A stretch of 38,287 nt of DNA from Thermodesulfobacteriota bacterium (GCA_965203965.1 CBDBDR010000001.1:1-38287), one strand, 5' to 3'; positions 4,880-31,739 are shown, counted from the first letter of the stretch. A program made the numbers and translations. The notes: a model not told the origin generated them from the sequence alone.

Positions 4880-7800
4880 CTATATATCCTTGATCTCTAT
4901 TTCTTGAGACTGCTCGCTCGAATGAGCTACACAGTCATTTAGTACAACTTTCTCATAAGCAGGATTTTCCTGAGTAGTTAGTCGTGGTGGAGGAAGTTGA
5001 GGAGGAACTGAAACATAGATATTGTTATTCTTGTCACCGTCAGGTTCTTCTGGTCTGATAATTATCCTCCAGTGCTTCCGAAATAATATAATAACCAGCA
5101 ATACAATGAAGAGAAGAACTGATATGACGATGAATAGAATAATTCCAATGACTGTTACAGCTGCAGGTAATACATAGATTGAACACAGAAGCCTGAAGGA
5201 ATATAGTCTCGTCCCCAGACCACTCCCCTTCCGCTGTGCTTAGCTTGGAAGAGGGTCTGGTACAGTTGTTTGCGAAGATCTTGCATAACGGAAGCGAAAC
5301 CGGAAGTGTGACGCTGGCCAATCAGATTCACTTTTCGTCACGTGTACAGTTCAGTTAGTCACGCCTACGTGCGTTTGATTGGCCAACGTCATACTTCCGC
5401 TTTTGCTTCCGTTATGCAAGATCTTCGCAAACAACTGTAAAATGAAGGCAAATTCTTGGTTCAATGACGTAATTGTCACGCGCGAAATCATGTGCATAAT
5501 AATTAGCTACCTGGATAGCCTCGTCCCCAGGCTCAGCGCCTGGGGACGAGGGTAGCTACCTGGTCTCCATCAAAAGACACACCACTATAGACCGGTTGGG
5601 CGCTAATACTTGACCGCAATAATTCTATGGAAAAAAATTTCATAATAGCCATTTTGAGTCCTACTAGTACACTTTTGCTACAAAGACCGTCAAGAAAAGC
5701 GTGGAACACAATTATTATGAGTTCTTTTGTGATGCCAAGCGGAGACAAGCTCGGAAAAGCACTGACAAGCGCAACTTGATTGGAGTCAAAACTCACACTT
5801 GTGACTTCCAGCGCCCGTTTTATCAACGGTAAGCCTCAGAAACAGCGAAATGTAGCACATTACCTTCGATAAAACGTCGATCCATCTGTTTCTCAGTCTG
5901 AAATCACTCCAAAGATCCTAGAAGTGTCGAATACACTTTACTACCAGATATTTGCTATGGCCCTGGAGCGTTTAGAACCATCTTTTTCAACCTTTTTCCA
6001 TATATCTACGTTTGTCTATGATAGAGAGCCCCCAAGAGTTGAGTAACACCCAAGAGTATCGGCGAATTGCTCCTGTTTGTTCGATATTCACTACGTTCTA
6101 GGCCTTGAAAATGGCGGACAAAGGCGTGGCACGATGACGTTTTTTAGAAATTATTGCGGTCAGCTGTTAGCGCCCAAGGGGTCTATAATTATGCTAGATT
6201 TACTGTTACGAAGCAAGTTGAAGATACTTGGTAGGACTAGGTAGCAAAGAGACTTCCCAGCGCCTGTGGGTGGAGCAATAAACACATCTCGCCCCGCTAC
6301 GAAATTGACCACAACTTCTTGCTGCTTAGCAGCCGATAGTAAACACGACTATCCAAGCTATTCGGCGCTCTTCGATATCGATTCCATGATAGCATTCCTT
6401 GGGTAAGCCATCATTAGCCATGATTAGCCATGATCAATGCAAGTCGTCGTCGCGTGCAGGTCATGTGAATTTTTTTGAAATACTGCAATCTGATTGGTAT
6501 TTCACGATTCTGAGAATGAAACGTCACGGAACCAGGAATTCGCCTTCATTTTACCAGACCCTCTACCAAGCAAAGCGGAAGGGGTGGGGTCTGGGGACGA
6601 GACTAGAAGGAATATTAAAGTGCTGTGCACCCTCTCATTGGCATCGTGAAACAAATCAGACTATTCTGCACAAGAATTTCTGCTAAGTCCTATAGTGATG
6701 CCTATAATATAGATTCCCTAGAACGTACACACGGGAGCATGAATTAAGGTATAATATAATTATCTCTCTTAACTGAAGTGACTGTTCAAAAGGACAGAAC
6801 CTTTCAGCCAAATTTTGGTTCAGGATGCTGGTTGCAGCAATCTTTTGACACACTCTCCCAAAATTAATTGTGGTGCCAAAGTTAATGGCCTCGTACTGTA
6901 CATTTATCAAACACAGTGTATTGCTAACCCACTTTGACTAACCAGTTATAAGACCATCAAAAGCAGTACTGAAGGTTGGTGTATCTGTAGCTAAAACTTG
7001 TGTGTTCATCACTCCTGTATCAGTGATACACTCACGGTATATACTTACAAAAATAGTATAATAGTCTAGTTTACCTGACACTCCTAGTGTTGCACTGATA
7101 CTCCCAGCTGTACTGTTCTGTGTTCCATGGCTTGTGACACTGAGGCTTATGCCTGTAACTGTATCTAGTTATGAGTAAAAGTTGTATACATACATGAGTT
7201 TTAACATTAGGTCACATGCAAGGCAACAGATGAATGAAATTGCTGTTCTTGTATATTATTATGCAGCTTTTATTGAAGATTACAGCATTGAAACGGAGTG
7301 ATAAATATGTGCATGCCATGCATAAAATATCCGCTATTTACCTAGTGTTGCACTGACATTCACATCAGTAGCAGTAGTAGCAGCAGCAGTAGTAGTAGTA
7401 GTAGTAGTAGTAGTAGTAGAAGTAGTAGTAGTAGTAGTAGTAGTAGTAGTAGTAGTAGTAGTAGTAGCAGCAGTAGTAGTATACTGTGTTCCATGGCTTG
7501 TGACAAGGCTCATGTCTGCCGTACCTGCATTTATACATACAAAAGCTGATGGTCGACTTGTTCTATTTAGCCAGCAGCCGGTGTCATAAAACAGCAATGT
7601 TTGTATGATGCTAGCTAGAGCTTACTCTTAAAGGGCATGTTGCTGAGCATAAAACATGTAATAATTATTTTTTCAATATTATTGTGAAATGCCAAAAAGT
7701 TGTGAAATGAACGGTTAATAGCTTTTCCAATTAATTTTTGTGGGTGATAATTACTTAATGTGCTTGTAATAGTGATACAACGAAATCTTTGTCTAAATTG

Positions 7801-8898
7801 TCAGAGGCATTAACAGTTTATTTTGAAGTTTTGGCACCACTGGTTTGACACTAAAATCGATGTATTTTACATGCACACTCACACCTCAAATGGCTAAATA
7901 ATGATGAAGAAGATGCACAATTACATTGCGCTATTGAGCCTTTTTGAACGGTTAATTATCCACTCACAAAAGTACTTACCACGTCACCTGCCGCATATCA
8001 CTGTTCAAAATGAAGTGCTATAGAAGCACCCTTTGGAGTGTTAATTAAAATACACTTTCCTTATAAGGTGCTACGGTAATATCGTAGTACCGTAACACAA
8101 TATAACAGTTAGTGTTACATTGTAGCCAGGTTCACCACAGTGTGACAAACAACAAACCTGTAACATTTAGTGTGAAGTTGAGCATATAACTGCCATATGT
8201 ATTATTAGCAATAATTTGGTAGTCTCCACTGTCTGATTGTTGCACATCATTCAGCATAAATATTTCAGTGTTCAGAGTGATACTAGAAGATTCAACAGTG
8301 GTATAACAGCATCCAGTCTTCTTTCTGAGAGTAAGGGTTGGTGTTGGATAACCAAATGTAAAAATAGTGCGCTCAACGTCACTGTCAGCCATTGCTTCAA
8401 TATTGTTAGATACAGGGGAAAATTCCAACAAAGGTACCCCTAGTGTCATTATAAGATAAAAATGAGTGGAGTTATAATTTATTAATAATAATTTTACCAG
8501 CAACATTAAGATGTCCTATGTAGCTCTTAGTGCATCCAGGAACATCACATTGATATGTACCATGATTTCTGATTGTCACAGGAGATTCAAAATACAAAAC
8601 ACCTTGATTTGTGACGCTAAAGAGACTATATAATAATGATAGGAAAAATTGTTTTAAACAAAACTGCAACATTAAACATGCATGCATGATTTTACATACT
8701 GGCACATTGTTCGGCGCAGCATGCTTAAAACCTAATAATGTGACAGTACGGTATTTGCTTACCGGTCACTCAGTCTTTGGCTGTTTAGCGTATGAAGCCA
8801 TCGCCAAAACACATTGCTTACATTTAATGCACAGGAAATGTTAACTCCTTCTTGCCCCAACTCTACTGTCTGATTTTCTGGATTCTGAATAAATGTCA
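4880..8898 (-). CDS. IgSF single-pass receptor gene A (2 Ig, Thr-rich stalk, TM, Tyr/Pro-motif tail), 5' exon missing
   Basis: GT-AG exons with compatible phases: 8898-8763, 8616-8498 (Ig: NISC...WRW...GTYQC), 8439-8158 (I-set-like, GYPTP...DSGDYQI), 7524-7342 (poly-Thr), 7158-7075, probable 6984-6943, 5160-4880 (AVTVIGIILFIVISVLLFIVLLVIILFRKHW...ENPAY). Confidence 0.85.
5263..5437. mobile_element. Palindromic TA-flanked MITE nested in the left TIR of the 5204 element
   Basis: ta|cagttgtttgcgaagatcttgcataacggaag...cttcgcaaacaactg|ta; copies at ~21972-22127 and 34093-34268. Confidence 0.85.
5516..5554. mobile_element. 39-bp TIR-only mini element
   Basis: tagcctcgtccccaggc tca gcgcctggggacgagggta flanked by gctacctgga/gctacctggt. 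Confidence 0.7.
5589..6184. mobile_element. Nested TIR element (AGACC...GGTCT ends), unclassified
   Basis: atagaccggttgggcgctaa...tgaccgcaataattct mirrored by agaaattattgcggtca...ttagcgcccaagggggtctat. Confidence 0.7.
7366..7481. repeat. Coding (ACT)n/(GCT)n microsatellite giving poly-Thr stalk
   Basis: (gta)n on + strand inside the phase 1-1 exon 7342-7524. Confidence 0.9.
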
Positions 8899-9124
8899 CT
8901 GTTCAAAAACAAATTAAGCAAATTGTATCATGTGAAAATTAAATCAAATTAAGTCGTGTGAAAATTTTTGAGAAGCTATCTTAGACGCTTGGTAAATTTG
9001 ACATTTTACAATTTTTTGAGGTGCTTGTAAAACGTGGAACACGGAATAGCGGAATGACGGAATAAAAAGTTGGCCGTGTAAGGTGGGCGTGGCAGATCAA
9101 AATGCTAACGCAGCATCTGCTCAG

Positions 9125-9702
9125 GGGAATGACTCAATTCACCCGGTTTGAAACCGTTGCCATGGCAATCACGTGATAACTATGGACGAATACTGTCAAC
9201 TATAAACCCAAAACCCTAAAAACCTTCTCCTAACTGCGCAGAGTCGGGAGGGGTATCCTAACCCGGGCCTTCGGCCCTTGGTAAGCCTAAGGATCGTCGG
9301 GAGGGGCGTCCTAAACAGGGCCTTCGGCCCTAGCTAAAGATCGTCGGGAGGGGCGTCCTAAACAGGGCCTTCGGCCCTAGCTAAGGATCGTGGGAGGGTC
9401 GTTCTAAACTAAGGATCGTCGAGAATGTTACTACTAGCTAGAAAACTCAAGTTTTTTTGTGAAAAAAAAAACAAAAAAATCAATGGACACGGTGAGGATC
9501 GAACCGTGAAAGTTTACATCACAAACCACCGCAGTAAACCTCTGAGCCACCGGAACCTGCTGACCAACCGTTGCTACAAACTAGGCTTTATAGTGATACA
9601 GTACGCGCGCGCATGTAGATGAAATAAGCCCCCGAAGGGGGCTTGTGCACGTGACGTACCCGTGACGTAGTCGTTTCAAACCGGGTGAAATGAGTCATAA
9701 CC
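9125..9702. mobile_element. MULE-like non-autonomous element with 10-bp TSD
   Basis: TIR atgactca.ttcacccggtttgaaac / gtttcaaaccgggtgaaatgagtcat; TSD atctgctcag at 9115-9124 and 9703-9712; internal ~47-bp tandem repeats. Confidence 0.8.
9485..9553 (-). ncRNA. Degenerate tRNA-derived Pol III module
   Basis: Minus strand A box TGGCTCAGAGG, B box GGTTCGATCC, then oligo-T; stems pair poorly. Confidence 0.5.
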
Positions 9703-31556: not shown

Positions 31557-31559
31557 TGA
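31431..31559 (+). pseudogene. Second orphan TGF-beta-receptor-like kinase terminal exon
   Basis: LFKNMALVMAGCWTHDAAARPSAVLVKKRLLRVAVNSGVKIG*; Trp intact, last codons lost. Confidence 0.7.
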
Positions 31560-31611
31560 TGATAAAAACAATAACAATAATAATATAGAACAAAGATTTA
31601 TCATGACTAAA

Positions 31612-31739
31612 TGGCGAGGAGGAAAAATGTAGAGATATTGTTATGTTATTCCTTGTCTCTTGTAAAAATATACAATAATTCGTAATAATTAAAACTGGAA
31701 TTACAATGAAGAGGAGAATTCCAATGATTGTCCCAGCAC
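31612..31739 (-). pseudogene. Relic TM/tail exon of a third IgSF receptor paralog
   Basis: Acceptor taatag, phase-1 GAGTIIGILLFIVIPVLII; downstream gacaaggaataac...aatatct...ttcctcctc matches gene A tail with frameshifts. Confidence 0.65.

Follow-up and report, generated by a model that had tools for sequence, protein, structure and literature searches.

Vertebrate paired receptors (KIR, LILR, Siglec, FcR-like) have near-identical ectodomains, and their tails differ, one kind carrying an immunoreceptor tyrosine-based inhibitory motif (ITIM) and the other a charged helix that pairs with an adaptor bearing an activation motif of the immunoreceptor tyrosine-based kind (ITAM). PTB and FERM-F3 domains recognise NPxY motifs in receptor tails, and these motifs bring about the recruitment of adaptors as well as endocytosis and recycling; integrins and LDLR are recycling or adhesion receptors of this NPxY/YxxPhi kind. 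Among the Hydractinia Alr genes, divergence is greater in the tails than in the ectodomains, each immunoglobulin (Ig) domain lies in a single exon, and ITAM or ITIM is present in many tails (PMC9546547). The NPxY tails of CED-1, Draper, and MEGF10 recruit PTB adaptors and combine NPxY with a second tyrosine motif (PMC8092387). The allorecognition candidates in print for sponges are the aggregation factors (AFs), secreted Calx-beta/wreath proteins, and the AF-associated Ig proteins are described so far without a membrane helix or anchor (PMC11670116). A review lists only adhesion-type Ig superfamily (IgSF) molecules for sponges (PMC11999971). Sponge membrane receptors for the aggregation factor, neighbour cells, or microbes are poorly known. 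Here we describe two IgSF genes, A and B, and a relic, C, in a 38,287-nucleotide contig (GCA_965203965.1 CBDBDR010000001.1:1-38287), and compare them with these systems.

The window, that is, the whole stretch that was analysed, is an entire contig of a 17-contig, 1.99-Mb assembly, and it was binned with a bacterial genome. Its GT-AG introns, open reading frames (ORFs) of the long interspersed nuclear element (LINE) type, Ig exons, and large TIG/Calx-beta exon mark the DNA, by these sequence characters, clearly as animal, and the host of genes A and B is probably a sponge. We consider it probable that A and B belong to a family of single-pass IgSF receptors that is lineage-specific and arose when a terminal exon, encoding the membrane helix and an NPxY tail, was moved or converted. 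The finding is a well-supported gene-family annotation and not a demonstrated recognition system.

Genes A (8898-4880) and B (27576-25200) both lie on the minus strand, and each ends in one exon for helix and tail. In the terminal exon of A (4880..5160, stop codon 4882-4880, covered by a read contig over 4700-5161) the membrane helix is followed by RKHWR and then by YVSV, PPQLPPPR, NPAY, and DCVAH. In the terminal exon of B (25200..25456, stop codon 25202-25200) a hydrophobic stretch of about 22 residues is followed by KHWKK, YDCV, PPQLPPPR, NPAY, and DCVAY. The two exons are 54% identical, and SVPPQLPPPRLTT, NPAYEK, and L.DCVA are invariant. The search from the B exon to A gave a tBLASTn E value of 2.1e-21 and a blastn identity of 70.6% over 252 nucleotides (nt), a match that overruns the exon by a few bases on the intron side and also reaches the beginning of the 3' untranslated region. 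The motif part of the exon showed non-synonymous (dN) and synonymous (dS) divergences of 0.08 and 0.33, respectively (dN/dS about 0.24), and the helix/juxtamembrane part showed 0.48 and 0.69; for the whole terminal exon dS was 0.63, a rough value from 85 codons. From the low dN against dS in the motif part, purifying selection on the tail motif is evident, as judged by this codon comparison. Two co-oriented genes with a shared helix and tail exon, as the original prediction had proposed from the letters of the window, are therefore confirmed. The count of paralogs by tBLASTn of the tail exon, suggested at the same time, returned none besides A and B over the 1.99-Mb assembly, and no other copy was found there with a 29-sequence profile.

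The ectodomains gave the opposite picture. For three of the four A-B pairs of Ig domains, Smith-Waterman z scores were −0.3, 0.0, and 2.1. The Ig2/Ig2 pair reached 4.2, and this similarity was confined to a generic L.DV.QSD.G.Y loop. The Ig1 domain is split over two exons by a phase-2 intron in A (8763|8625), whereas exon 1 of B holds the initiator Met, the leader, and the Ig-like domain together. The prediction that the Ig domains of the two genes cannot be aligned and differ in exon layout thus held. The ectodomain units of both genes have lengths divisible by three and symmetric phases (1-1), and both terminal exons accept in phase 1.

Relic C (31546..31739, minus strand) has a helix-like start and a decayed tail. 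An AG at 31739 is followed by GAGTIIGILLFIVIPVL.. and then by low-complexity sequence without the motif. Its first 45 nt (31737-31693) are homologous to the start of the A exon (5161-5117), with 34/45 positions identical, a z score of 8.4, and no equal among 500 shuffles (0/500); the helix resembles a B-like tail, P0033. No SVPPQL or NPAY motif was found in the relic, and the family profile did not detect it at E<=1. The surrounding sequence (30970..31853, strand not assigned) repeats the 3' flank of gene A (3219-4127) in four pieces with identities of 74-97%, and one piece, of 100 nt, is inverted; its downstream part (30970-31555) corresponds to 3219-3878, at a distance of 1-1.6 kb downstream of gene A. 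When the whole assembly was scanned in six frames with Ig_3 and I-set, Ig exons were placed in A and B only, with none upstream of relic C. A tail-exon segment with its 3' flank was thus duplicated without Ig exons and has decayed since. The relic also shows that such segments duplicate at this locus. Of the third relic proposed to share the helix and tail exon, the helix start and the copied flanks stood, and the motif is gone. Local duplication and decay in general is well documented here by the relic, the copied flanks, a Calx-beta fragment, and minisatellites.

A competing account of the same data is plain duplication of one two-Ig gene, in which the tail was constrained, ectodomains and intron positions drifted, and no exon moved. 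A and B share orientation, domain order (two Ig, helix, tail), and intron phases, the weak Ig2/Ig2 similarity (z 4.2) would fit common descent, and the tail dS of 0.63 is already high, an estimate from only 85 codons. Against this stand three of the four Ig pairs with z below 2.2, a relaxed helix part that still keeps dN at 0.48, and an Ig1 that is split in A and fused to the leader in B. In addition, dS in the motif part (0.33) amounts to half the value outside it, a difference that conversion or a later transfer would produce, and relic C is a tail exon copied without any Ig exon. We regard whole-gene duplication as possible, though on the unlikely side. The unalignable ectodomains, the different Ig1 layout, the lower motif dS, and the orphan tail exon together favour transfer or conversion of the tail exon.

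Gene A comprises seven exons in open frame on the minus strand, with consistent phases and GT-AG borders. The first half of Ig1 (8763..8898; ..ISCALNVSNVFWRW..) has a phase-1 acceptor and a phase-2 donor (CG|gtaagc), according to the sequence and the computed frames. The second half (8498..8625; ..HGTYQCDVPGCTKSYIGHLNVAG), also placed by its frame, is conserved in P0031, where it lies upstream of an Ig2-like exon. Ig1 has the C-x11-W and Y-x-C pattern; when its halves were scanned one by one, Pfam gave no Ig match. The Ig2 exon (8158..8439, phase 1-1) matched Pfam I-set with 27.7 bits (cut-off 23.7) and lacks the Cys pair. Among the sequences of solved structures in the PDB it matched contactin-5 (1e-10). 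The AF2 model was an I-set sandwich with a predicted local distance difference test (pLDDT) score of 87.3, and the best Foldseek match was Robo1 Ig5 (E 8.6e-7, TM 0.73), with titin, contactin, and Dscam matched as well. Relatives of the A-type Ig2 exon in other assemblies were 60% and 52% identical, and one of them was preceded by an exon for the second half of Ig1.

Three stalk exons separate Ig2 of gene A from the terminal exon. Stalk exon 1 (7342..7524) is Thr-rich and contains a coding (ACT)38 microsatellite (7367-7481, minus strand) that is translated into poly-Thr. Stalk exon 2 (7075..7158) is an internal duplicate of exon 1 (SL.VTSHGTQ.. ..SATLG). Stalk exon 3 (6943..7014) was placed by sequence and frame, and a read contig ends at about 6944. 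Pfam fn3 had no match on stalk exon 1 or on any scanned ORF of the window. Judged by its composition, the stalk is probably O-glycosylated and of variable length. The contigs of all runs break at the microsatellite. For the leader, the 8900-22900 interval was scanned for an ATG, a hydrophobic stretch, and a phase-1 donor; six matches at three donor sites (13703, 10524, and 9966) were obtained and none was accepted. The leader-like candidate at 10593-10524 lies inside an inverted-repeat element, one arm of which encodes a leader-like peptide with a phase-1 donor.

Gene B comprises three exons in open frame, again with consistent phases and GT-AG borders. Exon 1 (27231..27576, minus strand, phase-1 donor) encodes the ATG, a hydrophobic leader, and Ig-like domain 1, and exon 2 (26884..27156, minus strand, phase 1-1, alternative donor at 26860) encodes Ig2. 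Small stalk exons between exon 2 and the terminal exon are possible, perhaps near 26290-26234 and 25998-25984. Ig2 matched Pfam 'ig' with 23.0 bits (cut-off 21.8) and, in the six-frame scan, Ig_3 with 30.4 bits (cut-off 30). Among solved structures it matched titin and Fc-gamma-RI domains, with JAM among the weak matches. Curated Ig profiles thus pass on Ig2 of both genes, which places both in the IgSF. The first domain of B has a C...W...C pattern and reached only 19.4 bits with Ig_3. Its neighbours in the Atlas, a language-model resource, were all Ig clusters (0.92-0.93), which we take as a lead only. The single-sequence AF2 model of exon 1 had a pLDDT of 53.5, with a helix at 6-32 corresponding to the leader. 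A fold check of the Ig domains, proposed with the original prediction, therefore stood for A Ig2 and gave only this low score for B exon 1. A search of 5.8 billion proteins with exon 1 gave no relative; of three candidates, the window's own protein alone reached E<=0.01. The reading frames show for gene B a predicted type I topology of leader, two Ig-like domains, helix, basic stop-transfer, and tail; A has the same order minus the leader.

Read contigs were then compared with the model over 4700-24699, an interval that has gene B and relic C outside it. No sequencing run is on record as RNA, and runs X5, X13, and X14 were only guessed to be RNA. X5 holds 0.28 of the sampled words of 4700-9300, and the exon model predicts about 0.29. 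Its record 25 (867 nt) aligned by letters 85-367 to 8156-8438 with 0 differences, which is the A Ig2 exon within 2 nt, and it continues at both ends with other letters. Record 24 (519 nt) aligned to 4700-5161, stops at the predicted acceptor, and has 9 further letters. Another X5 contig, with three variants, ends at about 6944, the end of stalk exon 3. The bin depths of X5 were 5.61 (8035-8701) and 0.49 (7368-8034), which we infer to equal a 9.07-deep contig over Ig2, the second half of Ig1, and 38 nt of stalk exon 1. Within gene A, the X5 contigs were limited to exons. Splicing in transcripts is therefore supported in so far as contigs of this presumed RNA run end at the A borders 8156/8438 and 5161.

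These data bear on the view that the exons are chance ORFs or decaying pseudogenes among transposons and not functional genes. LINE and other repeats abound here, the start exon of A was not identified in the scan of 8900-22900, and B is supported by sequence alone. On the other hand, open frames, consistent phases, and GT-AG borders run across seven exons in A and three in B, motif dN/dS is about 0.24, X5 contigs are restricted to exons, and conserved relatives exist in other assemblies. We consider such an origin highly improbable.

To define the family, a profile of the A and B tails was compared with 1.84 billion representative sequences at E<=1e-3. It gave 29 matches (11 at E<=1e-10), of which 27 were kept. 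P0019, a repeat protein, and P0026, an SRCR/VWA/Ig protein of 1461 amino acids (aa) whose tail differs, were dropped as spurious. Seventeen matches came from a word-indexed search that used 29 aligned tails: B itself, five sequences already obtained, and 11 new ones. The family therefore consists of 38 further sequences from public assemblies together with A and B, that is, 40 tails. The 38 relatives are unnamed genomic ORFs of 64-239 aa whose start falls within the helix or a short way ahead of it, and some of their contigs measure 50-360 kb; by their extent they are terminal exons called on genomic contigs. No full-length annotated protein with the tail was present among the family matches. 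An A-like subgroup (P0034, P0035, and P0002) is 70-76% identical to A, with the intron end conserved as well, a B-like subgroup (P0033) is 68% identical to B, and a third subgroup has HVYDCVNHH..PPQPPPPRIATHNNPAYVQVELTECVAY.

NPxY was present in 37/40 tails, the remaining three having NLAY, DLAY, and CPAY, and a PP.LPPPR-like string was present in 29/40. Y-x-x-V/I/L/M/F occurred somewhere in all 40 tails, the upstream Tyr motif being Y-x-x-V/I. No tail (0/40) contained an ITAM as defined in PMC9546547, and A and B had no ITIM. ITIM-like strings in 11/40 ORFs were rejected as a family feature, because they had no conserved place and several lay in read-through intron. The C-terminus was T/S-x-hydrophobic in 10/40 tails (..TTV, ..TAV, ..SNV, ..TPV), like class I PDZ ligands; P0005, P0007, P0015, P0018, P0016, P0022, and P0029 are among these, and A and B are not. 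Pattern matches for the A and B tails numbered 583 in genome contigs and 144 in metagenome contigs, none confirmed. The tail was also searched in 101 genomes of the bacterial order of the bin, where only G000 matched. A literature search, with supplements outside its range, found no paper on the tail or on sponge NPxY Ig receptors. As judged from these matches, the tail exon defines a family that is so far without a name. At least 40 tails sharing the NPxY/polyproline cassette are concrete receptor candidates, the tail-exon profile is a handle for cataloguing them in sponge genomes, and the family is well suited to the question of whether movement of a signalling exon lets receptor families expand.

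On this basis A and B would be single-pass type I cell-surface receptors of the IgSF with two Ig-like domains each, A adding the Thr-rich stalk. One terminal exon would supply the helix and a tail of about 60 residues with a membrane-proximal Y-x-x-V/I, the PPQLPPPR polyproline, and NPAY. This exon would be a mobile or homogenised unit, added to genes whose Ig ectodomains are unrelated or converted from one such gene to another. The ectodomain presumably binds a ligand, and the tail would recruit NPxY readers of the PTB/FERM type, modules that bind proline, and the endocytic machinery. It would in this way couple ligand binding to adaptors and trafficking, possibly after Tyr phosphorylation, and in a quarter of the members the T-x-V ends point to PDZ scaffolds. 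By analogy with known NPxY tails, the A/B tail probably couples to PTB/FERM and endocytic adaptors. A study of how SNX17 recognises its cargo lists a DNPAYE-containing peptide among its NPxY peptide reagents (PMC11772769). With an adaptor-recruiting tail the proteins would serve adhesion or uptake and would not be immune switches of the ITAM/ITIM kind.

A more specific proposal is that the genes encode receptors for the uptake of microbes or particles, with a diversifying IgSF ectodomain on an engulfment-type NPxY plus Y-x-x-hydrophobic tail, serving phagocytosis of food bacteria, symbionts, or dying cells. The NPxY in 37/40 tails and the Y-x-x-V/I/L/M/F in every tail agree with it, as do the very divergent ectodomains and a host that lives with bacteria, its contig having been binned with a bacterial genome. 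Engulfment receptors join NPxY with YxxL/ITAM and recruit CED-6/GULP (PMC8092387). The absence of ITAM (0/40) and of EMI/EGF in the ectodomains weighs against uptake, and receptors for recycling or adhesion make just as good use of NPxY and YxxPhi. We judge this function unlikely. A wider form of it, in which sponges of one lineage built a diversifying repertoire by pasting the helix, YxxV, polyproline, and NPxY exon onto unrelated, fast-evolving Ig ectodomains, so that the receptors detect microbes, symbionts, or foreign sponge cells and respond with uptake driven by adaptors, seems to us quite unlikely. If true, it would be an engulfment-type innate recognition independent of ITAM/ITIM and of aggregation factors.

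The original prediction had gone in another direction and read the locus as a candidate allorecognition locus. A and B would then be polymorphic self/non-self determinants under birth-and-death evolution, in the manner of Alr in Hydractinia or fuhc in Botryllus. Tandem IgSF membrane proteins with a pseudogene relic amid repeated local duplications agree with this, and B exon 1, with no detectable relative in 5.8 billion proteins, fits fast evolution. The adjoining gene encodes TIG and Calx-beta domains, and Calx-beta proteins are the known sponge candidates (PMC11670116). Variation at gene A was assessed from three sources only. The X5 tail contig differs from the window at 15 listed positions, all within 5023-5128; these change 13 codons, all non-synonymously and none in the motif part. 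The variant letters are also present in DNA run X1, at a depth of 308-320 out of about 802-814, so that two forms of the helix/juxtamembrane part of A occur there, a point in favour of this view; the variant form is an allele or a close paralog. The variable part that was seen is the membrane helix and not the ectodomain. The A Ig2 exon, identical in three sources, had 0 differences over 283 nt in X5, which comes from a different study, and the A Ig exons had 0 differences over 1167 nt in X2, which may be the source sample. Moreover, no tail has an ITAM and neither A nor B an ITIM, the locus consists of two genes and one relic with no large array, and a conserved tail on divergent ectodomains is the reverse of Alr. 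A role in allorecognition is therefore improbable. Of the earlier reading, the IgSF family, the conserved Tyr-motif tail, and the modular birth-and-death style stood; the self/non-self role was not supported by Ig exons without differences in X5 and X2, a small cluster, and a pattern opposite to that of Alr and of paired receptors.

Several points count against a receptor family built by movement of the tail exon. Exon-exon links were inferred from contig ends and depth, and no X5 joint was present among the 15 of 123 joints listed. Since X5 carries only the variant of the A tail exon, with 13 changed codons, its tail contig may come from a paralog and may not belong to the mRNA of the Ig2 contig. 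The first exon and the signal peptide of gene A are missing from the model after the scan of 8900-22900. The first domain of B is Ig-like by weak evidence, and the exon chain of B, beyond the 4700-24699 interval of the read-contig comparison, rests on sequence. The A motif ends in DCVAH without the second Tyr that most members have. The statement of one tail with many ectodomains comes from A versus B, two of the 40 members. Finally, the tail dS of 0.63 leaves room for whole-gene duplication with very fast ectodomain change.

The remaining features of the window are mobile, repeated, or neighbouring elements. LINE-type ORFs for endonuclease and reverse transcriptase, one long and two fragments, are located at 12687-15365, 28451-29104, and 980-2014 (all plus strand), between and beside the Ig genes. 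The upstream neighbour of the Ig genes is a large open exon (36097-38286, minus strand) that runs off the window end. It contains three IPT/TIG domains (1.3e-29) and one Calx-beta domain (3e-6), and its TIG part resembles the IPT domains of plexin/Met (3e-15); an Atlas feature search with this ORF gave scores below 0.8. A decayed fragment of the Calx-beta exon is found 13 kb apart (23042-23456 versus 36031-36789). One 15-bp minisatellite (CATGCTCTAACTCTA) forms two arrays in the same orientation, at 24046-25064 (67 copies) and 32016-33860 (122 copies), and it was not found on the other 16 contigs of the assembly. Each array lies between a tail exon (B or relic C) and a Calx-beta piece, in mirrored order.

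A 98% inverted repeat (10348-10596 and 10907-11105) encloses a loop (10663-10840) that contigs of X5 and X13 contain and that DNA run X1 covers at very high depth; the unit 10348-11105 is probably a mobile element of high copy number. At 2008-2761 lies a tandem duplication of 371 bp with 96% identity. A 47-bp repeat of 3.4 copies at 9243-9409 is very deep in all runs and may be an element like a short interspersed nuclear element (SINE). A pair of plus-strand ORFs (31296-31559 and 3661-3900), ending in ..MAGCWTHDAAARPSAVLVKKRL.., shares 95% DNA identity over 153 nt, and in the copy near gene A (3661-3900) a stop replaces a Trp. By eye, the ORF at 31296-31559 is like the last subdomain of a protein kinase; Pfam gave no match on it.

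Compared with vertebrate paired receptors, A and B are similar in having Ig domains on phase-1 exons, with paired receptors forming tandem birth-and-death clusters whose tails are swapped by exon exchange. They differ in that the A and B tails match and the ectodomains do not, and in having no ITIM or ITAM. The CTX/JAM/CAR proteins likewise have two Ig domains, one helix, and a short tail, and PDZ-like ends are found in 10/40 tails of the present family; A and B, however, end in KDI and MKN, and JAM/CAR are without the NPxY/polyproline cassette. Hydractinia Alr was compared by its published features (PMC9546547). In both systems tandem genes, accompanied by pseudogenes, use one exon per module, and their products are IgSF proteins that cross the membrane once and join one to three Ig-like domains to a spacer, a helix, and a tail. 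In Alr the tail is the more divergent part, whereas the A/B tail is the conserved unit (54%). Ig domains of Alr are never split between exons, whereas A Ig1 is split by a phase-2 intron, and many Alr tails have ITAM/ITIM, whereas here ITAM is found in 0/40 and the conserved motif is NPxY. The Alr spacer is Fn3-like and the A stalk Thr-rich, and dozens of loci in the Alr cluster contrast with two genes and a relic. The resemblance to Alr and paired receptors that the original prediction saw is thus reversed in both cases.

CED-1/Draper/MEGF10 are also single-pass with a short tail that joins NPxY, read by the PTB adaptor CED-6/GULP, to another Tyr motif (PMC8092387). Their ectodomains are of the EMI/EGF type, with a true ITAM in Draper and MEGF10, unlike the Ig domains and ITAM-free tails of A and B. 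The likeness is one of motif logic only, with no sequence similarity or common ancestry. Sponge AFs are likewise extracellular recognition or adhesion proteins of sponges, clustered and fast-evolving (PMC11670116; PMC5400394), and a Calx-beta/TIG gene adjoins A and B. A and B are set apart by their helix and signalling tail, and Calx-beta is found by Pfam only in the neighbour gene (36097-38286).

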